This document shows positions 9,628 to 25,400 of a stretch of DNA of 64,000 bases, piece after piece. Within the stretch, counting starts at the first letter, position 1. Every line of letters begins with the position of its first letter. Both the position numbers and the translations under genes were made by a program. The stretch lies in NCBI GenBank assembly GCA_963816185.1, contig CAWFJJ010000030.1, forward strand, positions 96,001 to 160,000. Reading direction: 5' to 3'. The stretch comes from Thermoanaerobaculia bacterium. GTDB taxonomy: Bacteria > Acidobacteriota > Thermoanaerobaculia > UBA5066. The notes under the pieces were generated by a model, which saw only the letters and a list, made by a program, of their open reading frames with translations, ran no database searches and had not been told where the DNA came from.

Positions 9628-10007
9628 TAAAAAGCGAATAATTAACTCACTGGAATAACGATTGAATTGGTTGAGACAATTTTGTTCCAAGTTTTTGACC
9701 TGCCGATATTTCTCTACTTGAGAGAACGACCGGGAAGCATGATAAATTTTTCTCAAATTGATAATGGAACCAGCCGCGAACCGAAAAAGCTCCCGGCAAC
9801 CGCCTAAAACCCCCGGAGCCCGGGAGGGTAGGGGTAAAATTATTTTGCCGTGACGAAAATCCGGACAAAAATGAGCATTTTCTGCAGACAATAAAAGGTG
9901 CGGTTCACTTCTCAACTATCTTATGGTAAAAAGGTTTGGGAATATGGTTAGCTTATTGGATCAATCGCTGGGGCAGCGTCCCGCATTTTAAGAGATTAGG
10001 TAAACCT

Positions 10008-11447
10008 ATGGTAAATAATCAGGCACCACCGACATCGGAAGAAGCCAGCGGGCTGAAGCTCTGCGAAATAGGGCAGGAGTGCGTTGTCCCTCCCGGAACC
10101 CGCATCGTCAGCCAGGGAGAAACCCCGGAATTTTTCTATGTGATTCAGTCCGGTCGAGTGCGGGTCTTTCGGGAGACGGCAGACGGCATCCGGACCCCGT
10201 TGACGGAATTGAGCGCCGGCACTTATTTCGGCGAAGTGGCCCTGGTGACCGGCCAGCCTCGCACCGCCTCAGTGGAGTCCATAGAAGAATCCGTCCTGAT
10301 CAAGGTCTCCAAGGAAGAATTCGACCGGCTGTTGGACGATAACCCCAGACTGGCCCGCCATATTATCAATCAATTGGCCAATTGGTTGGTGACCGGGGAT
10401 AGGCGCCTGGAAAAAGAGGTGGTGCACCAGGTGAAGCTGCGCCAGATCTCCTGGTTCGACTATGCCCTCATGATCGGTTTGAGTATTATTTTTGGCGTGG
10501 TCTTTAACATTTACAACGACAATAAAATCCCGCTCATTTACGGCTGGGGCGAAAAGAACGTTATTCCCGAGATTTCTCTGACCCAGGCCCAGGAAGAGTA
10601 CCAGAAGAACCAGGTCATTTTCGTCGATGCCAGGAAAAGCGCCTTCTTTGAACAGGAGCATATCAAGGGCGCCATGAACTTGCCGCTGGTTCTGTATGAT
10701 TTGATGTTTCCCATGTTTCAGTTCACCCTGGAGCAGACCCCGGGGACCAAGGACAAGACCATTATTGTCTACGGCGGTTCGTTTAGCCGGCGGTTCGACC
10801 TCGAACTGGCCCGCCTGTTGAAAAACAAGGTTGCGAACAAGGTGGTGGCATTAAAAGACTACTCCGGCTGGGAGCACACCTTTCCTTTGGAAGAGAAGCC
10901 GCCCAAAGAAGGCGCCGCCATCTCGCTGGGTCTGGCGGGTCTGCTCGAATCGCTGCCGTTGTCCATTTTCCTGCTCATCCTAATTCCTCCCATCCGCCGC
11001 AGCCCTTACATGTCAATGGTTTGCCGACTGCTTCTGGGGGCTATCTTTATTTCCTTTGCCTTGAGCAAAATTTTGCGGCCGGCGGTCTTTGCCTTGAACA
11101 CGGTGGATTATGGCATGATGCCCGCCTGGGGGGTGAATCTCTGGGCCCTCGCCTTGCCGTGGGCCGAACTGGTGGTCGGGTTGTTCCTGGTTCTGGGCAT
11201 CCGGACCCGGGCGGCGGCTACCCTGATCGGGACCATGGAAGTTATCTTTATCGTCGGTCTGGTCAACGCCATTTTTCACCATCTGCCGATTAACTGCGGC
11301 TGTGTCGGTGAAGTGGGTGAGCCGGTTAACTGGTTGAAAGTCCTCAAAAATACCGGAGGGTTAATCATGTGCATCCAAATTTTCTTCTACGATCGTTTTT
11401 TCGTCTTGGATCGTGGAGGCTTCACCTTGCGGGATAGATCGATATGA
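10008..11447 (+). CDS. Fusion protein: cNMP-binding domain + TM + rhodanese-like domain (no catalytic Cys) + MauE/DoxX membrane domain
   Basis: FYVIQSGRVRV…YFGEVALVTGQPRTASV (cNMP); FVDARK…HIKGAMNLP…IIVYGGS (rhodanese); RLLLGAIFISFALSKI…LPWAELVVG…INCGCVG (MauE). Confidence 0.85.
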   Translation: MVNNQAPPTSEEASGLKLCEIGQECVVPPGTRIVSQGETPEFFYVIQSGRVRVFRETADGIRTPLTELSAGTYFGEVALVTGQPRTASVESIEESVLIKVSKEEFDRLLDDNPRLARHIINQLANWLVTGDRRLEKEVVHQVKLRQISWFDYALMIGLSIIFGVVFNIYNDNKIPLIYGWGEKNVIPEISLTQAQEEYQKNQVIFVDARKSAFFEQEHIKGAMNLPLVLYDLMFPMFQFTLEQTPGTKDKTIIVYGGSFSRRFDLELARLLKNKVANKVVALKDYSGWEHTFPLEEKPPKEGAAISLGLAGLLESLPLSIFLLILIPPIRRSPYMSMVCRLLLGAIFISFALSKILRPAVFALNTVDYGMMPAWGVNLWALALPWAELVVGLFLVLGIRTRAAATLIGTMEVIFIVGLVNAIFHHLPINCGCVGEVGEPVNWLKVLKNTGGLIMCIQIFFYDRFFVLDRGGFTLRDRSI

Positions 11448-11821
11448 AGAGAGAACTGCTGACGATAGCCGCGGTCCTTGGGTTGCTCCTGGTTTGCCTG
11501 GGCCTGGGAGGTTGCGGGGAGTCTCGCTCTCCCTTCGCCGGGACCTATCGGTCTGAGGAGACCTTTGCCGGGAATAAATACATCGACCTTGACCTGAAAG
11601 AGGATGGCAAGGGGACTTGGAGTCTGGCGGGGAAAACCGTGGAATTCACCTGGGTGGTGAACGAGGGCAAGGTCTGGATGTATCTCAGGACCGGGGGCAT
11701 CGTCATCGCCACCCCCAGCGACGAGGGCAAGAAGTTGTCGCTGGACATGACCGGCGACTGGCATCCCGGTTGTCCGCCCAATGCCTGTGTGACCTTTAAG
11801 CGGATCAAGGAAGGAGGATAA
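11444..11821 (+). CDS. Putative lipoprotein with C-terminal CPPNAC
   Basis: Lipobox-like LGGC after hydrophobic signal; ATGA overlap with upstream gene. Confidence 0.7.
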   Translation: MKRELLTIAAVLGLLLVCLGLGGCGESRSPFAGTYRSEETFAGNKYIDLDLKEDGKGTWSLAGKTVEFTWVVNEGKVWMYLRTGGIVIATPSDEGKKLSLDMTGDWHPGCPPNACVTFKRIKEGG

Positions 11822-11864: not shown

Positions 11865-13031
11865 TTGAGCCTCCTGGGGATTTTTGTACTGGCCGTGGGA
11901 AGTCTTCTCAGTCCCAGGATGGGGTGGGGAGCCGCTACTGTGGAAGTTCGCCGCCTGGGTTTGAGCCGGGTGGGAGAAAACACCTTGTTGACCATCGTCC
12001 TGGATCGGACGGCGGAGCCGCAAATCACTGCCGCCAAGACCTCGGGAAAACCCCAATTGGTGGTGGAATTCCCCCAGGCCCGGGCTGGGAACCTGCCGAG
12101 CCGCCTGGAAGGGGATGATATCTTGGTGGAGCAAGTGGAAACCCAGTCCGCTGCCAGGGGGGTGAGGATCACCCTTGACCTGTTCCCGGACCAACCCTAT
12201 TCTTACTGGCGACAGAGTCGACCCGGCCTCGGAGGCCAGACCCTGTTCATCCTGGGTCTGAAGCCCGACACCTCGGGCCGCGGCCTGACGCAGATGCGGC
12301 CACCGGCGGGACCGGCGCCGACGCCTTCCGCCAGCCCTTCACTACCGGCGAGGGAGCCGGAGTACGCCACCCCGCCTCCGACGGAGCCTCCTGTGGAGGA
12401 GTACAAACCAGCGGCGCCCTCCGGGAACGTGGTTCCCGGCAGCTTTGCCGATTTGCGCCAACTGATACCCCGGGCCGGGGCGCTGCTGCAAAGCCTGGAA
12501 AACGAGGGCTGGAGCGTCGGCGAATCCCATAATTATAACCGGCCGGGCCAACGCAATTTTCGGGATTTTACTCTGTCAAACCGGAAGTACCCGGAATTGG
12601 CGGTGAAGATTGTGTATATGCCGTCTAATTCGCCCGGAACTCCCAATATCGGCATTGTCAGCCTGACTACCGACAATTGGTCGAGTGAGGCCGCCACCAA
12701 ATATCAGAGCCTGCGCCAGTGGAGTTTCGGCCGTATTAAGAAGGACTATGAAGATATCGGCGATTTCTTCGAGGATGCTTTGAAACCCCTGCGGGTGACT
12801 CTGCGGGAAGAGACCAAGTCTCTGGTGCTCAAAGATGCCGTGGTCTTCACGAATTTTGTGCAGGCCGCCTCCGGCAACCCCCAGGTGGCCGAGAAAGTCA
12901 TGAGCCACGTGCGGGAGAAAGTGAATCCTCGATTCGAAGGGGTGCAATACACCGTCTCGGAAAACCCCCTGATCATTCTCAATCAGGTGGATTTTCTTTA
13001 TGTGAAGGTCTATTTTCTGGATTCCAAGTAA
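11865..13031 (+). CDS. Exported protein with AMIN-like N-terminal domain, Pro-rich linker and unknown C-terminal domain
   Basis: Signal-like N-term; LTIVLDR…PQLVVEFP…VRITLDL pattern; PAGPAPTPSASP linker; start uncertain. Confidence 0.6.
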   Translation: MSLLGIFVLAVGSLLSPRMGWGAATVEVRRLGLSRVGENTLLTIVLDRTAEPQITAAKTSGKPQLVVEFPQARAGNLPSRLEGDDILVEQVETQSAARGVRITLDLFPDQPYSYWRQSRPGLGGQTLFILGLKPDTSGRGLTQMRPPAGPAPTPSASPSLPAREPEYATPPPTEPPVEEYKPAAPSGNVVPGSFADLRQLIPRAGALLQSLENEGWSVGESHNYNRPGQRNFRDFTLSNRKYPELAVKIVYMPSNSPGTPNIGIVSLTTDNWSSEAATKYQSLRQWSFGRIKKDYEDIGDFFEDALKPLRVTLREETKSLVLKDAVVFTNFVQAASGNPQVAEKVMSHVREKVNPRFEGVQYTVSENPLIILNQVDFLYVKVYFLDSK

Positions 13032-13042
13032 GGAGGTGGACC

Positions 13043-13267
13043 GTGGCTAAGGAAATTACCATCTTCGGCAAGCAGTCCTGACCCTTCACCCTCAAGGCCC
13101 GGGAGGCCAAGAGTAAAGAGGGTTTTACCGTAATTTATAAGGATGTGATCCAAAGTTCCCAGGCCATGGAGGAGATGCAGGGCCTCATCCCGGGCAATCG
13201 CCGGGTGCCGGTGCTGCTGGAAGACGGCCAGGTGAGCATCGGCTTCGGCGGCGCCTGAAAGGCTTGA
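13043..13267 (+). CDS. Glutaredoxin-like selenoprotein with two in-frame UGA (Uxx-star type), 74 aa; not in ORF track
   Basis: AGGAGG RBS + GTG; MAKEITIFGKQS-U-PFTLKAREAKSKEGFTVIYKDVIQSSQAMEEMQGLIPGNRRVPVLLEDGQVSIGFGGA-U-KA*; UGA at 13079 and 13256; Grx VP and GF motifs lie after the first UGA. Confidence 0.88.
13091..13113 (+). promoter_or_regulatory. SECIS-like hairpin for UGA 13079
   Basis: ctc-aa-ggcc-cggga-ggcc-aa-gag starting about 10 nt after the UGA. Confidence 0.55.
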
Positions 13268-13270
13268 GTC

Positions 13271-13292
13271 ACCCACGGTCGTGGGTTTTTTT
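13271..13292 (+). promoter_or_regulatory. SECIS-like hairpin for UGA 13256, also resembling an intrinsic terminator
   Basis: acccac-ggtc-gtgggt 12 nt after the UGA, GGUC loop, followed by a T-run. Confidence 0.65.
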
Positions 13293-13775
13293 GCACAAAT
13301 CTGAGTAATCGGCTGGATCAAGGGCCGGGAGGTGGTAGCAAACCACCCCCGGCTTTTTTTCCACTATCTCCCGCCGGATTGCTTCGCAAGATTTCTTAAT
13401 GCCCTTGTACCGGCTTACTGGGAACGGGAAGAGGGCGTAGATGCTGGCCGAAACCACAATTTTTGCCAGAAGTCGGGTAGAAAGGAGCCCGATGGCTAAC
13501 TAAAATAAATAAAATAATTAAAGATTGAGTAACATATCTTAATTATTATTAAAATAGGTATAAAAAACGCATTAATAAAAATTCAGTTTTATGATTATAA
13601 AAAATGTCCCACTCTGAAGCATAAAATGAGCTTAAATGCTGGAAAATAACCCCATTATTGGGAAAATGGACGCGCTTTTTGCCACAGAAATTGTCAGGGA
13701 GGCGTGGGCAAATTTATTTATGGCGATTATTATTTAAGATTATCTGATGGTTATCAATATTGGTGAAATTTTTTC

Positions 13776-13804
13776 TTGACAGGCCGATCAATTGGCCATA
13801 AGAT
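13776..13804 (+). promoter_or_regulatory. Sigma-70 promoter
   Basis: TTGACA-N17-TAAGAT. Confidence 0.75.
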
Positions 13805-13810
13805 GGTTCA

Positions 13811-13986
13811 AACAATCACAAAGGTCCTTTGGGTCGTGCGCTAGTGCACTTAACCAATGGCTTTTGGGGATAGGAACCTGAGACCGGGCGGCCGTCAATA
13901 CCGGGGATGTTCCCCGGCGAAGCGACCCTAGGCTGAAGGCGTCAAATTACTACCAAGAAATCCGGGGCTGCGGCCCCAATTTTTTC
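13811..13986 (+). ncRNA. Candidate structured leader RNA or sRNA (class unassigned) ending in a terminator-like hairpin
   Basis: gggtcgt (13831) pairs with gcgaccc (13922); internal hairpins gtgcgctagtgcac and ccggggatgttccccgg; ggggc-tgcg-gcccc + T-run at 13964-13986. Confidence 0.5.
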
Positions 13987-14059
13987 CTGGCGGTTCCTTT
14001 TTTCAAGTTATTCCCCAGCCATCGAAGCAAGCCTGAACTGTCTGCAAAGGGAGGGAGCC

Positions 14060-14422
14060 ATGAAAACGATGGCTTTAGTTTGCCTGATCGGGGTTGGGGT
14101 CTTCTGTGCCCCCCGACCTACCATGTGCGTCACCATGTCCATCGTGACGGTCACCGCTTATCACCATTGCCCGGGCTCCAGAGGCATCACGGCCTCCGGG
14201 GAACGGGTCAGGACCGGGATCATCGCGGTCAGCCGGGATCTGGAGAGAAATTTGAGTCTCGATTTTGGCGATCGAGTCTTACTGCATGGCTATGGGGTAT
14301 TCCAGGTTCAGGACCTCATGGCCCCCCGTTGGAACAGAAGAGTAGATATCTACCTGGATAACCAGAGAAAAGCCTGCGATTTCGGGTTGCGGCGCTATGT
14401 AGTCCTGGTCAAACTCGTCTGA
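14060..14422 (+). CDS. 3D-domain (cell-wall hydrolase-like) exported protein
   Basis: VTVTAY…GITASG…IIAVSRDL…VQDLM…RVDIY; GGGAGG RBS. Confidence 0.88.
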   Translation: MKTMALVCLIGVGVFCAPRPTMCVTMSIVTVTAYHHCPGSRGITASGERVRTGIIAVSRDLERNLSLDFGDRVLLHGYGVFQVQDLMAPRWNRRVDIYLDNQRKACDFGLRRYVVLVKLV

Positions 14423-14434
14423 CGACGCCTGCCC

Positions 14435-14995
14435 TTATTTAACTCGCTCAATATAAGCGCCGGTGCGGGTGTCCACCTTGACCCGGTCCCCTTCATTGAT
14501 AAACAGGGGCACCTGGACGGTGGCGCCGCTTTCCAGGGTCGCGGGTTTGGTCCCCCCCGCGGCGGTGTCGCCCTTGACCCCGGGTTCGGTCTGGGCTATG
14601 GCCAGTTCCACGAAGTTGGGCAGCTCCACGGTGATCGGCTGTTTATTATAGAACAGGACCTCGACGTTCAGGTTGTCAATCAGGTAGAGGCGCCCGTCCC
14701 CCATCTGCTCTTCGGTGAGCATGATCTGTTCATAAGTCTCGTTGTCCATCATGCAGTAGCGGTCGCCTTCCCGGTAGAGATACTGCATCTCCTTTTCCTC
14801 TAGGTCCGGCTTCTCCACCTTTTCTCCGGAGCGGAAGGTCTGGTCCACCACCCGGCCATTGAGCAGGTTCTTCAGCTTGGTGCGGACGAAGGCGCCGCCT
14901 TTGCCGGGTTTGACGTGTTGAAAGTCCACGATGACATATGGAATACCGTCTATTTCGACCTTGAGGCCTTTCTTGAATTCAGCAGTGGAATACAT
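14435..14995 (-). CDS. efp: Elongation factor P
   Basis: [41 protein letters not shown]. Confidence 0.98.
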
Positions 14996-15117
14996 GTCTA
15001 ACTATCCTTTCTTAAAATGAAATAAGATGAAATTTCTCCCCCAAGGCGCCTTTAGGCAGACCAACCATGCTTCGGCCAATCCCAGTCGCGGGGAAATTTA
15101 GCAGATAACCTTCAGGG

Positions 15118-15594
15118 CTACTGAACGTTGTTGGAGCCGGGTTTGGGCGCCCCCTCCAGGAAATGCCAGGCCCACGACTGTTGGCGGGCCTTCGGCGGCT
15201 CTCCGGGTTTGGCCTGGGGTTCAACTGCAGGGGCCACACTGGGCGCGGCGGCTGGAGAGGTCTGCTTGCTTTCCCGGCCGGGAGGCAACTGAAAGATTAT
15301 TTCGTTTTTTTTGACGAAATTCAACTCCCGCCGGATGAATTCCTGGATCATTTCCGGATCGTTCCGCAAGCGATCAATGGTGCGGGTCAAGCGGGCGTTT
15401 TCTTCCGCCAGGCGGGCGTTGTCCTGATCCAGCCGGACCCGGTCGTGACGGAAACGATAGATCTGATAAAGGCCGCGGTGGCTGAAAAGTACCAAGGCAA
15501 CCACCAGCAGCCCCAGGGCAACGGCCACCCCGGCGAGCAGTTTATGGCTACCCTTGGCCTCGAGGCCCTCGACCTGAGTAGTCGACGAAGTCAT
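15118..15594 (-). CDS. ftsB: Septum formation initiator FtsB/DivIC family
   Basis: Single TM then coiled coil, LRNDPEMIQEFIRRELNFVKKNEIIF; start moved to the ATG with GGGGAG RBS. Confidence 0.8.
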   Translation of the reverse strand: MTSSTTQVEGLEAKGSHKLLAGVAVALGLLVVALVLFSHRGLYQIYRFRHDRVRLDQDNARLAEENARLTRTIDRLRNDPEMIQEFIRRELNFVKKNEIIFQLPPGRESKQTSPAAAPSVAPAVEPQAKPGEPPKARQQSWAWHFLEGAPKPGSNNVQ

Positions 15595-15769
15595 GTTCTC
15601 CCCCCAAACCAGACTTCTTGACTGAATAATGCCTGAAAAACCTGACAGATGCAAGCAAAAACGGCTGTTTTAGAGGACTTAGCCCGGCGAAAGCGTTTTT
15701 TTTACCGATGGGGGGAACATGGTCAGGGCGGTTCTCGAACCGTCCTTTACTCTGGCCCCTGATCCCTGA

Positions 15770-16299
15770 CCCCTGACCCCGGCCTTTCCTGGGCCGCCCG
15801 AATCTGGTCCAGAATGGCGTTGACAAAGCCGCCGGAGTCTTCGCTGCCGTAACGCTTGGCCAGTCTATGGCCTCGTTGATCACCACCTTGGGAGGAATTT
15901 TGGGGATATAAAGGAGTTCAGAGGCGGCCAGTCGCAGAAGATTGAGATCCATCACGGTCATGCGTTCCAGTCGCCAATGCTCGGAATAGCGGGCGATAAG
16001 GGCATCCAACTCCTCCCGGTGAACCGCCACCTCCTGCACCAGATTCCTGCAGATAAGCGGGAGGCGCATAATTTATGAGACTTATCTGGGTGAGTCGGCG
16101 CACCGGGCCGACTCTGAGGCCGATATTCTTAAATGGAATTAATTTGGCACGGCCCTTTCTGGCTCGAATAATTAATAAAGGTCCAAAGTGGCTCCAGAAA
16201 CGCTCCAGGTCCTCCCGGCCAGCGACCCCCGACAAAATCGGCCTGATAAAGAAATTTCAGCGCCCATTCCCGGCACTGGCTGCGGGAATAAGCCGCCAA
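15770..16299 (-). pseudogene. nusB: NusB antitermination factor, disrupted by frameshifts and a ~110-nt insertion (possibly an assembly artefact); ends approximate
   Basis: Pieces RSQCREWALKFLYQAD, EDLERFWSHF, LDALIARYSEHWRLERM…LLRLA…IPPKVVINEAI, AKRYGSEDSGGFVNAILD; canonical position after ribH. Confidence 0.85.
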
Positions 16300-16302
16300 A
16301 AA

Positions 16303-16770
16303 TCAGGCCCCCAGGCCTTTCAGGAGATTGACCATTTCAATGGCGGCCTCCGCCGCGGCAAAGCCCTTGTTGCCCGCCTTGCTGCCGGCCCGCTCGATGG
16401 CCTGCTCCAGGGTGTCGGTGGTGAGAATCCCGAAGGAGATGGGCATGCCGGACTCCAGGCTCACCATCGCGATGCCTTTGCTCACTTCCGCGGCCACGTA
16501 ATCGAAATGGGGCGTAGAACCCCGAATCACCGCGCCCAGGCAGATCACGCCATCATAAGCCTTGGACTGCGCCAGGCGTTTGACCACCACCGGAATCTCC
16601 CAGGCCCCGGGCACCCGCGCCACCATGAGGTCGTCTTCCGCCACTCCCTGGCGCCGCAGGCAATCCAGGGCGCCCTCCAGCAGGCGCTCGGTAATAAAGG
16701 AATTGAAGCGGCTGACCACCAGGGCGAATTTCAGGCCTGCACCGCTGAGCTTGCCTTCGACTGTACGCAT
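16303..16770 (-). CDS. ribH: 6,7-dimethyl-8-ribityllumazine synthase
   Basis: [43 protein letters not shown]. Confidence 0.98.
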
Positions 16771-16923
16771 CCTTCCCCCTTTTTGGTGTACAATTGTTCT
16801 CGTTCCGAGCTTGCTTGTGAGGCAAATTTTAAACGAGGCTAGCTGCGTAATCCAAAGACCAGGTTGAGAACTAAAGGCTCTTTCTCCGGTTACCCTTTTC
16901 CCCTTTCGCCTTTTCCCCCTGCT

Positions 16924-18132
16924 TTAACTTTCCACCAGTTTCAACATATGCCCCATCTTTTGGCATTTGGTTTTCAGGTAATTGCGATTCACCCGGTTGG
17001 GCGGGATCTCCAGGGCCACCCGCTCTACCATGTTGAGGCCGTAGCCTTCCAGGCCGATGATCTTCTTGGGGTTGTTGGTCATCAGGCGCATCTTGCGCAC
17101 CCCCAGGTCCCGGAGGATCTGGGCTCCGATGCCGTAATCCCTGAGGTCCGCCTTGAAGCCCAGGGCCTCGTTGGCTTCCACCGTATCGGCGCCCTGGTCC
17201 TGCAGTTCATAGGCCCGCAGTTTGTTGACCAGGCCGATGCCCCGGCCCTCCTGGTGCATATAGAGGATGATGCCTTTGCCTTCGCATTCCACCAGTTGCA
17301 TGGCGGCTTCCAACTGGTCGCCGCAGTCGCAGCGCAGCGAATGGAAGACGTCGCCGGTGACGCACTCGGAATGGACCCGCACCAGGACCGGCTCGGCGGG
17401 GTCGATCTCCCCCTTCACCAGGGCCATGTGCTGGTTGTCGTCCACGTCATTGTCGTAAGCCACCGCAGTGAACTCACCATAGTAGGTAGGCAGCTTGACC
17501 ACGGCCCGGCGGTGTACGAAGGACTCGTGGCGCAGCCGGTACTCCACCAGGTCGGCGATGGTGGCGATCTTGATATTATGCTCGACCGCGAATTTTTCCA
17601 GGTCCGGCATCCGGGCCATGGTGCCGTCGTCCTTCATGACCTCGCAGATGACCGCGGCGCCCTTCAGCCCCGCCAGGCGGGTCAGGTCCGTGGAGCCCTC
17701 GGTCTGGCCGGTGCGCACCAGCACCCCGCCCTTGCGGGCCCGGATGGGAAAGACGTGGCCGGGGCTCACCAGGTCATCCGGCCGGGTGTGATCCGCCACC
17801 GCGGTGAGGATGGTGGTGGCCCGGTCTGCCGCGGAGATGCCGGTGGTCACCCCCCGGCGGGCCTCGACGGAGACGGTGAAGGCCGTCTTGAAGCCCGACT
17901 GGTTGTCGCGCACCATCTGGGGCAGTTGCAGGCGCTCCACCAGGGGCGGATCCAGGGCCAGGCAGACGAGGCCCCGGCCGAAACGAGCCATGAAATTGAC
18001 GGCCTCCGGGGTCACCAACTCCGCGGCCATGGTCAGGTCACCTTCGTTTTCCCGGTCTTCGTCGTCCACCAGGATGATCATCTTCCCCTGGCGCATATCT
18101 TCGATGGCTGCTTCAATAGGTGCTATCGACAT
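16924..18132 (-). CDS. ribBA: Bifunctional DHBP synthase / GTP cyclohydrolase II
   Basis: [30 protein letters not shown]…RCDCG, QEGRGIG, TNNPKK. Confidence 0.98.
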
Positions 18133-18225
18133 AATTAAATTCCTGTTTTCCGTTTCTTATATTATTTCGGTGGCACAGGCCTCTGGCCTGTGATTCTCTT
18201 CTTACTGCTCACTGCTCACTGCTCC

Positions 18226-18871
18226 TTACAAAAACCCGTGCCGGGCCAGCAGCTCCGCCGTGACCCCCTCCTCCTGCGGACGCCTCTCGCCCCAGCATCC
18301 GGGCCACGTACTTGCCGATGAGGTCCGTTTCCAGGTTGACCCGGTCCCCCACCTTCAAGGCGGCCAGGGTGGTTTCCTGGGCGGTATGGGGGATGATGTT
18401 CACCGTGAAGGTGTTGCCCTGCACCGCGTTCACCGTCAGGGAAACCCCGTCCACCGCGATGGAGCCCTTCTCGATGACGAAGCGGCTCAAGGCTTCGGGC
18501 AGCTCGATGTGTAATTGAAAATAGGCCGGTCCGTCCCGGCGCTGCCGCACCGCGCCGGCCGCGTCCACGTGGCCGGTGACCAGGTGGCCGCCCAGACGGT
18601 CGCCAAGTCTAAGTGATCTTTCTAAGTTTACCCGGTCGCCCACCTTTTTCAAGGGGAAAGTGGTGCGGGCCAGGGTCTCGGGCGACACCTCGAAGCTGGC
18701 CGCGGGCGGATTAATGGCCACCACCGTCAGGCAGGCCCCGGCCACCGCCACTGACTCCCCCAGGACCAACTCTGCGGCTGGAAAGGCAGTCTTGACCACA
18801 ATCCTGAGCCCTTCCGCCTGGGGCGTGAGCCCGACGATCTCTCCCACCCCTTCCACTAAACCGGTAAACAT
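18226..18871 (-). CDS. ribE: Riboflavin synthase (alpha chain); 3' frameshift
   Basis: MFTGLVE, VNLERSL…GGHLVTGHVD, KGSIAVDGVSLTVN; natural end VTAELLARHGFL* in another frame. Confidence 0.95.
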
Positions 18872-19103
18872 GTATGAATTTCCTGAATGGCGAATTTATT
18901 TTGTAATTTTACAATTATTACGGCGAAAGCGCAAACGCCTTTCTCCAGAAAAAACGGCGCCTATTCGAGGCGCCGCTTTTTACAATATGATGCGACTGGT
19001 GGGGCGGGCCTCCGTGCCCGCCTTCCGGTGGGCGGCCAGAGACGGCTGCCCCACCTGTCTTAGTGGAACCGCCCAGGGCGGCGGTGCCACCTTTACTCGT
19101 CCC

Positions 19104-20159
19104 TCAAGCCACCGTCACTTCCTTGCTCAGGAAGACATCCTGGATGGCGTTGAAGAGCTCCACCCCTTCCTTCATGGGGCGCTGGAAGGTCTTGCGCCCG
19201 GAGATCAGCCCCATGCCGCCGGCCCGCTTGTTGATCACCGCGGTGCGCACCGCGTCGGCCAGGTCGTTTTTCCCGGAGCCGCCGCCGGAGTTGATCAGGC
19301 CCGCCCGGCCCATGAAGCAATTGGCCACCTGGTAGCGCACCAGGTCGATGGGGTGGGCGCTCGTCAGCTTGGTGTAGACCAGCTCGTTGGTCTTGCCGAA
19401 CTTGGGGATGGCCTTGTAGCCGCCGTTGCACTCCGCCATCTTCTGTTTGATGATGTCCGCCTCGATGGTCACGCCCAGGTAATTGGCCTGGCCGGTGAGG
19501 TCGGCGGAGGCGTGCATGTCCCCCTGCTCCGTCTTGAAGGCGGGGTTGCGCAGGTAGCACCAGAGGATGCAGGCCATCCCCAGTTCGTGGGCCAGCTTGA
19601 AGGCCTCGCTGATCTCCTGGATCTGGCGCCGGGACTCAGCGGAGCCGTAATAGATGGTCGCCCCCACCGCCACCGCCCCCAGATCGAAGGCCTGCTCCAC
19701 GCTGGCGAACAGGGTCTGGTCGTAGAAATTCGGGTAGCTCAGCATCTCGTTGTGATTGATCTTGACGATGAAGGGGATCTTGTGGGCGTATTTCCGGGCC
19801 ACCGAGCCCAGCACCCCGAGGGTGGAGGCCACGGCGTTGCAGCCCCCTTCCAGGGCCAGCTTGATGATGTTTTCCGGGTCGAAATAGATGGGGTTGGGGG
19901 CAAAGGAGGCCGCGGCGGAGTGCTCCACCCCCTGGTCCACCGGCAGGATGGAGAGGTAGCCGGTGCCGGCCAGGCGGCCGTGGCCGAACAGAGACGCCAG
20001 GGAACGCAGCACCCCGGGCGAGCGGTCGCTCACCACGCAGACCCGGTCGATGAAGTCCGGACCCGGCAGGTGCAGGCTCTCCTTGGGGAAGCCGGTGCAT
20101 TTATGACTCAGCAGGTTGTCGGCCTCAGAACCTAACAATGATTGAATTTTTTTGATCAT
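19104..20159 (-). CDS. fbaB: Class I fructose-bisphosphate aldolase (FbaB type)
   Basis: [45 protein letters not shown]. Confidence 0.95.
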
Positions 20160-20349
20160 CGCCACCTTGCCACCTCCTGAAAACGGTTTTCGGTTTTCAG
20201 TTTTTTTCTGTTCCCAAGCTCCAGCTTGGGAACCCGTTTGATGCAAAGCTCCAGCTTTCGAGGATGGCAGAAATATTATGATTGCCAAAAAACGGACCCT
20301 TATTTAATAATAAGATGCCCCTAAACGTAGGCAAGGGCAAATATTTTTT

Positions 20350-21549
20350 CTATTTTTTATCCCCAGCTGCCAACTCCAGGGCCACCTGGGCCGCCCGGGC
20401 CGAGGCGCCGGGGCCCTGCAAGCGGGTGATGACCCGGGCCAGGCCCTGAAAGATGGACTTCAGACGCTCCCGGTCGGCAATCAAGTCCAGGACCTCCTGA
20501 GCCAGCCGCTCCGGGGTGAAGTCATCCTGGAGGAGTTCCGGGAAAAGACGTTCGCCGGCCAGGAGGTTGGCCATGCCCACGTGGTCCACCCGGACCAGGC
20601 TGCGCGCCACCCGGAAGGTCAGGGGCGACACCCGATAGACGATCACCGTGGGCGTGCCGGCCAGGGCCGCCTCCACCGTGGCCGTGCCCGAGGCCACCAC
20701 CGCCAGGTGGGCCGCGGCTAAGGCCTCGTAAGACTGGCCGGAGATAATTTTTAGATGCAGCCCTGGCGCCCCCGCCGGTCCCTGCCCAGCCGGGCGCGGC
20801 TGCTCTCCATCTCCTGCGGCCACCATCTCCTTGACCAACGCCACCGGGGCCGTGGAGGCCAGGGGCAGGAGGAACTGGGCCTGCGGGATGGCTGCCTGGA
20901 TCAATCGGGCTCCGGCCAGCATCATCGGCAAGTGGCGCTCAATTTCACTGGCCCGGCTGCCGGGGAGCAGGGCCAGGGTGAGGCGCTCGGGGTCCAGGCC
21001 CCATTGGGTCAACAGGCCGCGGCGGTCCACCCGGGGCGGCAGGCCCTCCAGCATCGGGTGCCCCACGTAAGTCACCGGCACCCCCCGCTGCCGGTAAAAT
21101 TCTTCTTCAAAGGGAAAGATCACCACCATGCGGTCCACCAGGCGGGCAATGGTGCGCACCCGGTAGGTGCGCCAGGCCCAAACCTGGGGACTGATGTAGT
21201 ACATCACCGGCACCCGGTAAAATTTGGCCAGCCGGGCCACCCAAAAGTTGAAGTCCGGGAAATCCACCAGGATGACCAACGCCGGGCGCTCGGCCTTCAG
21301 GGCCCGGCCCACGTCCCGCAAAGCCCGCAGCACCGCGCCCAGCCGGCCCACCACCTCCGAGAGGCCCATTACCGCCAGCTCCGAGGCGTGGCAGAGGAGA
21401 CGCACCCCCTGGGCGGCCATGGCCTCGCCGCCGATGCCGAAAAACTCGGCTCGGGGCTCTTTCGCCTTGATGGCCGCCACCAGGCGGGCCGCATGCTCGT
21501 CTCCGGAGGCCTCCCCGGCGACGACGAGAATTTTTTTATGCTCAGCCAT
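20350..21549 (-). CDS. lpxB: Lipid-A-disaccharide synthase
   Basis: VAGEASGD, DFPDFN, YYISPQVWAWR, LLPGSRASEI, ASGTATVE. Confidence 0.97.
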   Translation of the reverse strand: MAEHKKILVVAGEASGDEHAARLVAAIKAKEPRAEFFGIGGEAMAAQGVRLLCHASELAVMGLSEVVGRLGAVLRALRDVGRALKAERPALVILVDFPDFNFWVARLAKFYRVPVMYYISPQVWAWRTYRVRTIARLVDRMVVIFPFEEEFYRQRGVPVTYVGHPMLEGLPPRVDRRGLLTQWGLDPERLTLALLPGSRASEIERHLPMMLAGARLIQAAIPQAQFLLPLASTAPVALVKEMVAAGDGEQPRPAGQGPAGAPGLHLKIISGQSYEALAAAHLAVVASGTATVEAALAGTPTVIVYRVSPLTFRVARSLVRVDHVGMANLLAGERLFPELLQDDFTPERLAQEVLDLIADRERLKSIFQGLARVITRLQGPGASARAAQVALELAAGDKK

Positions 21550-21825
21550 ATATTCTATCGAAAAAAAAAGCCGGTATGGCGGCCCTCATGGGAATTAGGG
21601 GCGGTTCACGAACCGCCCTCGGCTAGTAGTCTCTTCCCCTTTTCGCCTTTTCGCCCTTCTTTTCATCCCTTAGCTTTTTTCGTTGCCGCCATGATCTCCA
21701 GTAAAGCGTAGGGCGGGAAAGCGCAGCGCATCCCGCCTTCGGCCATTCAGGTTAGACCTTACTTATGCCTCAATATATTCGCTTGGGCAGCAGATGATCA
21801 TCATGGGCTTCCCCTTTTCCCCTTT

Positions 21826-22773
21826 TTACCCCTTGGCGATCTTCATGGCCGCCATGATCTCCAGGGCCAGATTCAGCGCCTCGCGCCCGGCTTCACCGCT
21901 GATCGGGGGCTCCTGGCCGGTCTTGACCGCCTGCACGAAGGCGATGATTTCCTTATTCAAAATATCTTCCTGGGGGAAGCGCCGGGTTTCCAGGGCCACC
22001 CCGGGGATGGGGCCCATGGCGCCCGCCTTCTTGAAGGCCACGGTCAGTTCCCGGTTCTCAAAATCCACGGCCAGATAGGCGTCACTCTGGAACAGGCGAA
22101 ACTTGCGCATGCTCTTGAAGGACATGCGGGAGGCGGTGAGGTTGGCGATGCAGCCGTCGGCGAACTCCAACCGGGCATTGGCCAGGTCGATGCGGTCGGT
22201 GAGCACCGAGATGCCCGCGGCCCGGATCTCCTTCACCGGCGACGGCGCCAGGCTCAGGACATGGTCCAGGTCATGAATCATCAGGTCCAGGACCACGTCC
22301 ACGTCGGTGCCCCGCTCTTTGAAAAACGCCAGGCGGTGGCTTTCGATGAAGCGGGGTCGGTTCGCCTTGGCCTTCAGCTCTTCCATGGCCGAGTTAAAGC
22401 GCTCCAGATGACCCACCATCAGGATGCGCCGGCGCTCCCGGGCCAGGCGCACCAGTTCGTCGGCTTCGGCCACGGTGACGCTGATGGGCTTTTCCACCAA
22501 CACGTGACAACCGGCCGCCAGCGCCTCCTGCACCACCCCAAAATGACCGGAGGTAGGCACCGCCACACTCACCGCCGCGACCTCCGGCAAAAGCTCCTGA
22601 TAATCGGTGTAGGCCCTGGTCCCTAAAGCCTGGGCCACCTCGACGGCCCGGGCCTGGTTGAGGTCGGCCACCCCCACCAGTTCCGTGTCTTGCAGATGGG
22701 CGTACTTCTCGGCGTGGAAGCGGCCCAGGTAACCGACGCCGACGACCCCGACCTTGATGGGAGCCTCGTCCAT
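21826..22773 (-). CDS. Gfo/Idh/MocA oxidoreductase (GnnA-like, next to lpxB)
   Basis: GVVGVGYLGRFH, VEKP, VGHLERFN, DVVLDLMIHDLD, ANLTASR. Confidence 0.9.
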   Translation of the reverse strand: MDEAPIKVGVVGVGYLGRFHAEKYAHLQDTELVGVADLNQARAVEVAQALGTRAYTDYQELLPEVAAVSVAVPTSGHFGVVQEALAAGCHVLVEKPISVTVAEADELVRLARERRRILMVGHLERFNSAMEELKAKANRPRFIESHRLAFFKERGTDVDVVLDLMIHDLDHVLSLAPSPVKEIRAAGISVLTDRIDLANARLEFADGCIANLTASRMSFKSMRKFRLFQSDAYLAVDFENRELTVAFKKAGAMGPIPGVALETRRFPQEDILNKEIIAFVQAVKTGQEPPISGEAGREALNLALEIMAAMKIAKG

Positions 22774-23019
22774 GATGAAAAAATTCCTCTGTTTAAGAAT
22801 ATCTTAATTAAAAGAAAATTGTTTTCCGCCGGAGCTGACCTGTTATCCTGCTAATTCCAGGCGCATCCCGGGTGTGCCTTGGCTGGCAAAAGCTTGGCAA
22901 GCCAGCCCCATCATACCGGAAAAGGAGACCCTTAGGCAACGAAAACTGCGGGAAACCATTTGACAAGCGCCCTGTGAAGCGATAAAAAATCTTCAAGCTA
23001 CTTTCTGGAGGCAGGATAA

Positions 23020-23949
23020 ATGGTGGAAAAGGCGAAATTTATCTGGCTGGACGGCAAGTTCATTCCCTGGGACGAAGCGCACGTGCACATCATGACCCAT
23101 AGCCTGCATTATGGCTTGGGAGTCTTCGAGGGCATCCGGGCGTACCATTGCCAGGACGGCCGGACCGCCATCTTCCGTCTGAAGGAACATGTCCGGAGAC
23201 TGTTCGACTCCGGCCATGTCATGCAAATGGAAATTCCTTTCTCCCGGACCCAGATCGAAGAGGTTTGCTGTGATATCCTGCGGCGCAACGGTCAGAAGTC
23301 GGCCTATCTGCGTCCCCTGGTGTTCGTGGGCGACGGCGTCATGGGCCTGCATCCCCAGGACAATCCCATCCGGACTACCGTCATCAGCTGGGTTTGGGGC
23401 GCCTACCTGGGGGACGAGGGTTTGGCGAAGGGCATCCGGGCCAAGATTTCGTCCTTCTCCCGCCACCACGTCAACGTCATGATGACCAAGGCCAAGACCA
23501 CGGCCAATTACGTCAACTCCATCCTGGCCAAGCGGGAAGCCACCTCCCTGGGCTACGACGAGGCCCTGATGCTGGATACTGACGGCTACGTGGCTGAGGC
23601 CTCCGGAGAAAATATCTTTATCGTCTCGGACGGGGTGCTGCGCACCCCGCCGATAACCGCGGTGCTCTCCGGTATCACCCGGGCCAGCATTATTACCCTG
23701 GCTCAGGATTTGGGCATTCCGGTGCGGGAAGACATCTTCTCCCGGGATGAGCTCTACCTGGCCGACGAGGCCTTCCTCACCGGCACCGCGGCGGAGGTCA
23801 CCCCCATCCGGGAAGTGGACGCCCGGATCATCGGTCCGGGGAAACCCGGCCCCATCACCCAGAAATTGCAGGCCGCCTTCTTTGACATAGTCAAGGGCAA
23901 GAACCCGCAATACCAGGAGTGGTTGACTTATATAATTAAAAAAATCTAA
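23020..23949 (+). CDS. ilvE: Branched-chain amino acid aminotransferase
   Basis: SLHYGLGVFEGIRAY, KAKTTANY, EASGENIF, LSGITR, FLTGTAAEVTP. Confidence 0.97.
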   Translation: MVEKAKFIWLDGKFIPWDEAHVHIMTHSLHYGLGVFEGIRAYHCQDGRTAIFRLKEHVRRLFDSGHVMQMEIPFSRTQIEEVCCDILRRNGQKSAYLRPLVFVGDGVMGLHPQDNPIRTTVISWVWGAYLGDEGLAKGIRAKISSFSRHHVNVMMTKAKTTANYVNSILAKREATSLGYDEALMLDTDGYVAEASGENIFIVSDGVLRTPPITAVLSGITRASIITLAQDLGIPVREDIFSRDELYLADEAFLTGTAAEVTPIREVDARIIGPGKPGPITQKLQAAFFDIVKGKNPQYQEWLTYIIKKI

Positions 23950-23953
23950 AATG

Positions 23954-24088
23954 CAGTTTTCAGTTTTCAGTTATCAGTTTTCAGCAAAAGAAAATCAAAC
24001 GGGGCCTCGGGAAGGAATTCCCCAAGCCCCGTTCGCATTGCAATTTCTTTGCTTTTACAGAAAACCGAAAACCGAAAACTGAAAACCG
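23954..24088. repeat. Inverted heptamer tandem arrays flanking a hairpin between convergent genes (likely bidirectional terminator)
   Basis: (cagtttt)n … ggggc…gcccc … (aaaaccg)n. Confidence 0.6.
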
Positions 24089-24090
24089 TC

Positions 24091-24504
24091 TTATTCGGCG
24101 CCGCAGTCCTTGAGATATTGCAGCATGATATCGGTTTCGGTAATCAGGCCCACCAGGTGTTCGCCCTCCACCACCGGCAAACAGCCGATCTTCTTGTCCA
24201 TCATGAGCCTGACGGCCTCACATAACTTGGCGTCCGGAGAGATGGTGGTCACCGCTTTGACCATGATGTCCTTAATGCGCAGGGTCTTCATCAGGTCCCG
24301 GGAGGCCTGGCCGCCGTAACCCAGGGCCTGGGCCAGGGAACTGCGGAACAGGTCCCGCTCCGAGATGATCCCCGCCAGCCGGCCGCCGTCCACCACCGGC
24401 AGATGGCGAATCCTGCCCAGGCGCATGATGTCATTGGCCAGACTCAGTTCATCATTGACATCCAGCGTGGCTATTTCCTTGACCATTACTTCCTTGACCG
24501 TCAT
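24091..24504 (-). CDS. CBS-domain protein
   Basis: IRHLPVV…GIISERD; IGCLPVV…GLITETD. Confidence 0.93.
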   Translation of the reverse strand: MTVKEVMVKEIATLDVNDELSLANDIMRLGRIRHLPVVDGGRLAGIISERDLFRSSLAQALGYGGQASRDLMKTLRIKDIMVKAVTTISPDAKLCEAVRLMMDKKIGCLPVVEGEHLVGLITETDIMLQYLKDCGAE

Positions 24505-24699
24505 TCATTATCTCCCGGAGGTGATTCTTGCCTGCTGAGCAAATCTGATGGATTTGTCTAGTTCAGCCTTCTGGTAATGTACGAAATTATCCCGCGGGAG
24601 GCAAATCATTTGGTGGCGGAGGCTTGCCAACCCGGAGCTGCGCAGGCTGAAGCCTGCGGCGACATTTTTCTCAGCGCCAACCGCAAGCCGCCAACTGTC

Positions 24700-25400
24700 T
24701 TACAAGGAGGCCAGCCACTCCTGGCCCCGAACGCTCAGGTCCGCCAAAACCTGAAAACCGCGGCGGGCTTCGTCCGGGCTCAGATACCCCATGCCGCAGG
24801 CCGGGGTGAGCAGGGCCCGGCTCAGGATTTCTTTGAGGCCGGTTTTTTGATCCTGGGCCAGTTGCGCCACCTGTTGGGTAAACCGCGGCCAGAGGCTGTC
24901 GGCGGTTTCCTGGCGAAAATCTGCCGCCCCGGTGGGCACCAGGCCCCAGGCCAGCCAACCGCCCCGGGCGAAAAATTTTGCCACCGCCTGATCATAGAGA
25001 CGCAGACTATCAAAGTAACCGTAGGAGTCGAAACTGAGGATATCGATGGGGGCGGACAAAAGCAGGCCCCAATCGGTGTTGCCGCAGCAGTGCATCCCGA
25101 CGGCCACCGGCCCGGGGGCGGCCTGCCGCAATTCATCTATGGTCTGCCCGATGATCTCCAAAACCTCTTCCCGGGAGATGGGCAAATAGGCGGAGCCGAA
25201 GCCGGTGAGGAAAGGTTCGTCCAGGAAGATGACCGGGTCTTTGCCCAACTCCCTGAACTTCCGGGCCTGCCAGGCGGCCTTGCGGGCCAGGCCCAGGCAG
25301 GCGGCCTGGGTCAGCTCCCGGTCAAACAACATGGCCTTGCCTTCCCGGTCCTTGACCATGCCGGCGAAGGTCACCGGTCCGGCCAGTTGGCCCTTCAGGG
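24700..25400 (-). CDS. Cobalamin-independent methionine synthase-like protein (MetE C-terminal fold), 5'-truncated at the junction
   Basis: LKGQLAGPVTF, IFLDEP, GMHCCGNTDW, LSFD, LAWGLVPT, LLTPACGMG; N-terminal part absent. Confidence 0.8.

Follow-up and report, generated by a model that had tools for sequence, protein, structure and literature searches.

A UXX-star family 1 gene with two UGA codons predicted to encode selenocysteine, each followed by a 3′ hairpin

Results

A glutaredoxin-like reading frame with two internal TGA codons

The 64,000-nt stretch of DNA analyzed here (the window, whose coordinates are used throughout) carries on its plus strand a GTG-started frame at 13043-13267, which by sequence and translation runs for 74 codons before a TGA stop. 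An AGGAGG Shine-Dalgarno sequence at 13031-13036 shares one base with the upstream TAA (13029-13031), and the GTG lies 6 nt farther on. The 30 nt upstream of the GTG are near-identical in three relative loci (L041-L043). The frame begins ...F-G-K-Q-S-TGA(13079-13081)-P-F-T... and ends ...G-F-G-G-A-TGA(13256-13258)-K-A-TGA(13265-13267). An earlier, sequence-only reading of this DNA had proposed a GTG frame with an AGGAGG at the upstream stop, 74 codons and two in-frame TGA codons, and all of these can be read directly from the sequence. The features of the locus, all on the plus strand, are listed below with the evidence for each.

9936..11447, plus strand: gene 1, 503-aa protein with cNMP-binding, rhodanese-like and MauE/DoxX membrane parts (Pfam)
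11444..11821, plus strand: gene 2, 125 aa, lipoprotein-like at its N-terminus and matching no family (sequence, Pfam/NCBIfam)
11865..13031, plus strand: gene 3, 388-aa protein with an N-terminal AMIN domain, PF11741, at 22.6 bits against a cut-off of 20.5 (Pfam)
13031..13036, plus strand: Shine-Dalgarno sequence AGGAGG (sequence)
13043..13267, plus strand: predicted coding sequence of a UXX-star family 1 glutaredoxin-like (Grx-like) selenoprotein, 74 codons plus TGA (NF041114, PF00462)
13079..13081, plus strand: UGA read as Sec13, at the active-site position of U-P-F-T (alignment to the CPYC of Grx3, relatives)
13080..13124, plus strand: putative SECIS-1, within the coding sequence (fold, frozen codons)
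13256..13258, plus strand: UGA read as Sec72, third residue from the end, U-K-A-stop (relatives)
13265..13267, plus strand: true stop, TGA here and TAG, TAA or TGA in relatives (sequence, relatives)
13271..13292, plus strand: putative SECIS-2 in the 3′ UTR, together with a T7 run; also terminator-like (covariation, per-sequence hairpin search)

A table-11 ORF listing contains no plus-strand ORF at the selenoprotein gene and does contain an antisense ORF of 103 aa (13010-13321). The sequence-only reading held that ORF finders miss the gene and call this shadow ORF in its place. The gene is missed and the antisense ORF exists, but the exact antisense sequence is absent from a collection of 15 billion proteins, so the notion that it is called instead is unsupported. 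For the database relatives, gene callers yield pieces of 42-55 aa or forms that stop at the second UGA, and no antisense ORF.

Reads might have shown TGC or TGT at these codons, a concern raised along with the original proposal. Contigs over 12800-13400 from two DNA runs and two RNA-library runs leave both TGAs and the stop unchanged where covered, and the second TGA (13256-13258) is intact in contigs of runs X1, X2 and X16. Because these independent contigs agree, and ten independent assemblies keep the TGAs, sequencing error is argued against. The RNA-library contigs, from runs X15 and X16, each extend over part of the gene and by themselves are no proof of transcription, strand or ends; X16 coverage, which comes from one study only, stops near 13314.

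The encoded protein is assigned to UXX-star family 1

For profile searches, the protein was scored with TGA read as Cys. It reaches 86 bits (E 1.5e-24) against the equivalog model NF041114.2, 'UXX-star selenoprotein family 1', whose cut-off is 72, and a six-frame search with the same model gives 72.4 bits over model positions 1-67. Beyond this score above the cut-off, the protein resembles family 1 in its equal length, in Sec followed by P-aromatic-T at the active site, in a G-F-G-G-x-U-x-x-stop tail and in a SECIS 3′ of each UGA. Other Uxx-star proteins share the small glutaredoxin fold and the U-x-x-stop end, but the window protein falls under the cut-off of every one of their models: the parent family (NF041212, 64.9 bits against its own cut-off of 66), families 2 and 3 (NF041211 and NF047338, 29.5 and 34.8 bits against 100 and 97) and the HUGP/GUXX-star fusion (NF045501, 36.7 bits against 325). 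Classical glutaredoxin models give 13-25 bits against cut-offs of 84-129, with TIGR02181 (20.3 against 90) and TIGR02180 (16.4 against 87.25) both far below threshold. The protein has neither a classical CxxC nor a CGFS active site, its motif being U-P-F-T.

An AF2 model built from a 37-sequence alignment (A3) has a mean pLDDT of 77.3, with a strand at residues 4-9, a helix at 14-25, a strand at 29-34, a helix at 39-48 and strands at 57-60 and 63-67, and no helix in the tail (residues 68-74). As modeled, the protein has the fold of a glutaredoxin that lacks its final helix. The best PDB matches in Foldseek are glutaredoxins (4tr1, 4mjb and 3qmx; TMq 0.70-0.73, rmsd ~2.1 Å, E-values all >0.001). 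When PDB sequences were searched with a profile, the two Cys positions of CPYC in E. coli glutaredoxin 3 (Grx3) were matched by Sec13 and Thr16, respectively, in agreement with the position previously claimed for Sec. The proposed glutaredoxin likeness is likewise borne out by Pfam Glutaredoxin (PF00462, 29.3 bits), by the NF041114 score and by the top Foldseek matches.

Compared with dithiol glutaredoxins such as E. coli Grx3 (1fov/3grx) and Clostridium oremlandii cGrx2 (4tr1), the window protein has the same fold, nucleophile position and V-P (cis-Pro) and G-G motifs. It differs from them in having Thr for the second Cys of CxxC, in lacking the C-terminal helix and in carrying a Sec on the tail. 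That tail, U72-K-A-stop, places Sec three residues before the C-terminus; the suggestion that the gene ends in U-x-x-stop proved correct, and this architecture is the defining trait of the UXX-star family.

A 2026 review lists UXX-star family 1 as 'Distant Grx-like protein 1', with UxxT and two Sec, and credits it to Zhang & Gladyshev 2008; its table gives family 2 one Sec (PMC13188914). The passages of Zhang & Gladyshev 2008 that bear on this describe 'Grx-like' proteins with UxxC, and in them the NF041114 subfamily is unnamed (PMC2398784). The two-Sec architecture is already in print and in NCBI annotation rules. Since family 1 is already catalogued with two Sec, the gene is a correct call rather than a discovery, and it changes nothing known of the family.

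Both TGA codons are conserved in two clades

We scanned 151 genomes of the assigned order in six frames; the tallies include three unpublished genomes (G002, G009 and G146). UXX-star family 1 was found above cut-off in 71 of the 151, and 68 of 75 order-wide matches have two in-frame TGA codons. The other seven comprise five that end short of one site, one full-length match with a single TGA and one without TGA, the last being a weak match (29 bits) that is not a family member. Within the high-GC clade (loci L007-L036), the first site is TGA in 30/30 and the second in 29/30, or 29/29 and 28/29 when the unpublished locus L008 is left out; locus L031 has Gly at the second site.

When the window protein was used as query against a broader set of species genomes, 12 loci were recovered: nine full-length (65-92% identity), one apparently frameshifted and two unrelated weak matches (L051 and L052). 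The frameshifted copy (L050:3001-3220) is 86% identical over its best segment and loses the frame after about residue 37, through either a frameshift or an assembly error. The window gene and its nine full-length relatives, which we refer to as the window clade, have TGA at both sites (10/10 and 10/10). Across the two clades, 39 of 40 relatives retain the pair of TGAs, the exception being the Gly noted above, and the true stop three codons after the second site varies among relatives (TAG, TAA or TGA). Codons 13 and 72 of the window gene thus coincide with the two Sec positions that the family conserves.

The window protein is 38-47% identical to 27 high-GC members of UXX-star family 1 (alignment A3), and its clade is a divergent one. 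The two clades differ in the residues surrounding both Sec positions, with Q-S-U-P-F-T and A-U-K-A in the window clade and D-T-U-P-Y-T and T-U-G-V in the high-GC clade.

The protein databases contain 21 relatives. Eighteen are 42-55-aa fragments whose start lies past the first UGA and whose end is the second. The other three are 70-71-aa forms that end at the second UGA, two with Cys at the first site (P0003 and P0005) and one with Arg. The two with Cys make this a Sec/Cys pair. The expectation that Cys and TGA would align in homologues therefore holds at the first site in 2/21 of these relatives, and TGA is conserved at both sites in both clades. The main value of the gene lies in correcting annotation, since gene callers miss it or leave such fragments, as in the 18 of 21 database relatives above.

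Taken with the sequence of the window, these comparisons make it very likely that 13043-13267 on the plus strand is a genuine NF041114 gene in which both UGAs are recoded to Sec.

Codon usage around the hairpin after the first UGA

The predicted hairpin following the first UGA (SECIS-1) has an apical stem at 13096-13099/13105-13108 (GGCC/GGCC) that closes a loop at 13100-13104 (CGGGA). This apical stem begins 14 nt past the UGA codon and sits atop a longer stem that begins at the UGA itself. The sequence-only reading had placed a hairpin 10-12 nt after each TGA; the spacing is right for the second hairpin, at 12 nt, and wrong for the first. Folded alone, SECIS-1 has an MFE of -19.1 kcal/mol (z -2.0, 7/200 shuffles as good), a modest result for a single sequence.

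Because this hairpin lies within coding sequence, we examined synonymous sites. Codons 18-22 (K-A-R-E-A) each use one codon in 10/10 window-clade sequences, whereas two to three codons are used for Ala, Gly, Val and Arg at other invariant positions of the clade. Similarly, 28/28 high-GC sequences encode Arg20 as CGT, while the invariant Arg53 of that clade uses four codons. RNAalifold on the high-GC clade predicts a 4+2-bp hairpin for SECIS-1 with one covarying pair (CG in 15, GC in 7). The apical loop differs between the clades, with a G in the window where the high-GC clade has an invariant U.

Covariation in the hairpin after the second UGA

SECIS-2 begins 12 nt past the second TGA and consists of a 6-bp stem (13271-13276/13281-13286) with the loop GGUC, as had been noted from the sequence, followed directly 3′ of the stem by a T7 run (13286-13292). 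On the window sequence alone it is unremarkable (z -1.1, 21/200 shuffles as good), so its significance derives from relatives. In a per-sequence search of 29 sequences (L008 is excluded, and the second UGA is missing from L031), 26 have a perfect stem of 6-12 bp, closing a loop of 3-5 nt, that starts 9-16 nt past the U of the second UGA, compared with 16% of shuffles; the remaining three have bulged stems. Stem sequences vary from genome to genome, and the loops are mainly GUC, GGUC, GGC and GUU.

Within the window-clade alignment (A4), a 6-pair helix, chosen by eye and placed by hand, is 98.3% paired, and three of its six pairs have changed on both sides. Its covariation is 0.42 against 0.24 in shuffles, with 0/500 shuffles as high, and slid-helix controls on the same alignment are 29-48% paired. 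An RNA-library contig of run X16 carries the compensatory changes A13275G and T13282C, on the two sides of one SECIS-2 pair. MAFFT and RNAalifold found no consensus helix across 29 diverse 3′ UTRs because the stems vary in length and sequence; the helix emerges only from the per-sequence search and from the more closely related window clade. An Rfam scan of 12900-13500 (E up to 10) returned only chance-level matches to unrelated families.

By these sequence comparisons, each UGA is followed by a predicted 3′ hairpin that is under RNA-level selection, one inside the coding sequence and one past the stop. SECIS-2 would illustrate clearly, in a natural gene and with covariation behind it, how a bacterial SECIS can lie beyond the stop codon.

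In the window sequence, SECIS-2 and its T7 run were also picked up as terminator-like, and in this copy the hairpin and T7 together probably end the transcript as well. A long T-run 3′ of SECIS-2 occurs only in the window and is absent in L044-L048. As the T-run is not conserved, the conserved role is that of a hairpin at a fixed distance from the UGA.

The selenoprotein gene closes a conserved four-gene arrangement

Genes 1 and 2 overlap by 4 nt, and the stop of gene 3 overlaps the ribosome-binding site of the selenoprotein gene. The order of the four genes (503-aa, 125-aa, 388-aa, selenoprotein) is kept in 10/10 loci (L041-L050), with neighbor identities down to 48-58%. Flanking housekeeping genes (EF-P and a DivIC/FtsB-like gene) are also syntenic in the window clade, so the linkage of the four genes may partly reflect relatedness. 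Neither the 125-aa neighbor nor a 120-aa neighbor matched any Pfam or NCBIfam family. The membrane part of the 503-aa protein (9936-11447) contains a C-G-C motif, as read from the translation, and its rhodanese-like active-site loop has Gly at what we take to be the expected catalytic Cys position.

The high-GC loci of UXX-star family 1 have another design, in which an OPT oligopeptide-transporter gene (PF03169) adjoins the selenoprotein gene. This holds for 7/7 loci examined of the 30 (L007, L009, L014, L016, L021, L025 and L034); in six of them the OPT gene follows the selenoprotein gene on its strand, and in one the two are divergent. A CarboxypepD_reg-like protein is encoded on the other side of the gene in several high-GC loci.

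The arm of the contig that carries the gene appears to be foreign to the assembly

From position 1 to ~121,400 of the contig (window ~25,400), GC content is ~0.59; it then steps abruptly to 0.67-0.72, and most other contigs of the source assembly are at ~0.67. DNA at window positions 14000-25400 is 91-97% identical to three MAGs that bear the title 'uncultured delta proteobacterium' or 'Desulfobaccales bacterium', and nothing comparable beyond window ~25,400 matches these three Desulfobaccales-like MAGs. The EF-P left of the GC break is 40-45% identical to full-length EF-P of genus-mates, and a second EF-P lies on contig C8. Right of the break, ArgJ is 74-94% identical in 11/12 genus-mates. 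Neither the selenoprotein gene (0/28) nor the 388-aa AMIN-domain neighbor (absent from 28/28) is found in genus-mates.

The absence of the selenoprotein gene from all 28 genus-mates brought horizontal transfer into consideration; we rejected it in favor of a foreign contig arm, given the GC break, the identity to the MAGs and the contrast between EF-P and ArgJ. On sequence grounds, the contig probably results from a chimeric join or bears a 121-kb foreign arm. The selenoprotein gene appears to come from a Desulfobaccales-like organism and to have entered this assembly through an assembly or binning error, or else as an island of very large size.

The source assembly has selA, selB, selD and two tRNA-Sec genes (C14:29774-29872 and C24:155246-155344), all on high-GC contigs and possibly another organism's. 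Its selD (C8:373999-374967) carries an in-frame TGA of its own. Because these Sec genes may belong to another organism, we examined five genomes that carry the window-type gene. All five have selA, all five have selD (each with its own TGA) and all five have a tRNA-Sec over the gathering score. A selB over the cut-off is present in two; two others have a partial selB, one of them near a contig end, and in one it was not found. The Desulfobaccales-like MAGs themselves have selA, selD and tRNA-Sec. When the Sec machinery of a genome is to be cited for a selenoprotein gene, it should first be checked which organism owns that gene, as the contig here looks chimeric.

The same arm contains 30-100-nt stretches at approximately 18998-19095, 20202-20263, 21708-21745, 24040-24093 and 24610-24670, which may be REP-like dispersed repeats of that lineage. 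In the three related MAGs, each finds matches of 80-100% identity at dozens of places.

Discussion

By the established mechanism of bacterial Sec insertion, each of the two hairpins would be a docking site for SelB carrying Sec-tRNA(Sec), and the UGA that precedes the hairpin would be recoded. In the resulting protein, Sec13, where helix 1 begins, would stand in for the nucleophilic Cys of CPYC, and Thr would take the place of the resolving Cys. The G-G motif lines the active site in the glutaredoxin fold. Because the last glutaredoxin helix is missing from the model, Sec72 would sit on a short flexible tail just past this motif. With the nucleophile kept, the resolving Cys lost and a Sec on the tail past G-G, we infer that it is geometrically plausible for Sec72 to resolve Sec13 by forming a diselenide within the molecule, or for both selenols to clamp a soft ligand. 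This model-based mechanism, including the diselenide, is put forward tentatively and falls somewhat short of an even chance.

The same gene and the same recoding could also yield a protein whose selenols bind a soft metal or metalloid (Hg, As or Cu), making it a carrier or chaperone rather than an oxidoreductase. The arsenic metallochaperone ArsD is among the weaker structural matches (TMq 0.57), which fits such a role. However, no metal-resistance gene lies beside the window copy or in the seven high-GC loci examined, where the neighbor is the OPT gene, and the best structure and sequence matches are redox glutaredoxins. We consider metal binding less likely than not.

Recoding might instead be confined to the first UGA, with the second a real stop that yields 71 residues and the hairpin past it merely an intrinsic terminator. 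A hairpin followed by T7 is what a terminator would look like, the second hairpin does not stand out from shuffles of the window sequence, and the database gene calls P0003-P0005 do end at the second UGA. Against this, the second site is TGA and never TAA or TAG in 39/40 relatives, while the stop three codons on varies freely; the hairpin keeps its offset even in relatives without a T-run; and the two codons past the second UGA are conserved, as G-V or K/R-V/A. Termination at the second UGA is accordingly very improbable. Standard ORF finders detect nothing on the plus strand, as would be expected of a chance frame or of a glutaredoxin pseudogene decayed by two nonsense mutations, but either possibility is negligible given a frame, length and pair of TGAs conserved in two clades at 38-96% identity, a conserved ribosome-binding site and operon position, and an HMM score above a curated cut-off.

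As the selenoprotein gene is the last of a conserved four-gene arrangement, the 503-aa membrane protein may be a candidate partner of the selenoprotein, a link that we draw only weakly. More speculatively, the window clade might be a separate functional branch of UXX-star, with the gene fixed at the end of a four-gene operon that includes the cNMP-binding, rhodanese-like, MauE/DoxX membrane protein; the selenoprotein would be the soluble selenol partner of a regulated membrane redox module, and SECIS-2 would double as the intrinsic terminator of the operon. We regard this extended proposal as doubtful; if true, recoding and the formation of the transcript end would share a single hairpin. A literature search combining selenoprotein, MauE and rhodanese found nothing; the main paper on the family (Haft & Tolstoy 2025) lay outside that search.

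Two further features lie downstream of the gene. A longer GC-rich hairpin with a T7 run on the plus strand (13324-13360), about 35 nt past SECIS-2 and unreported by a consensus terminator scan, could be a back-up terminator. The intergenic DNA at 13500-14000, which separates the selenoprotein operon from the gene that follows, is AT-rich (GC 0.39) and has several promoter-like matches, on both strands.
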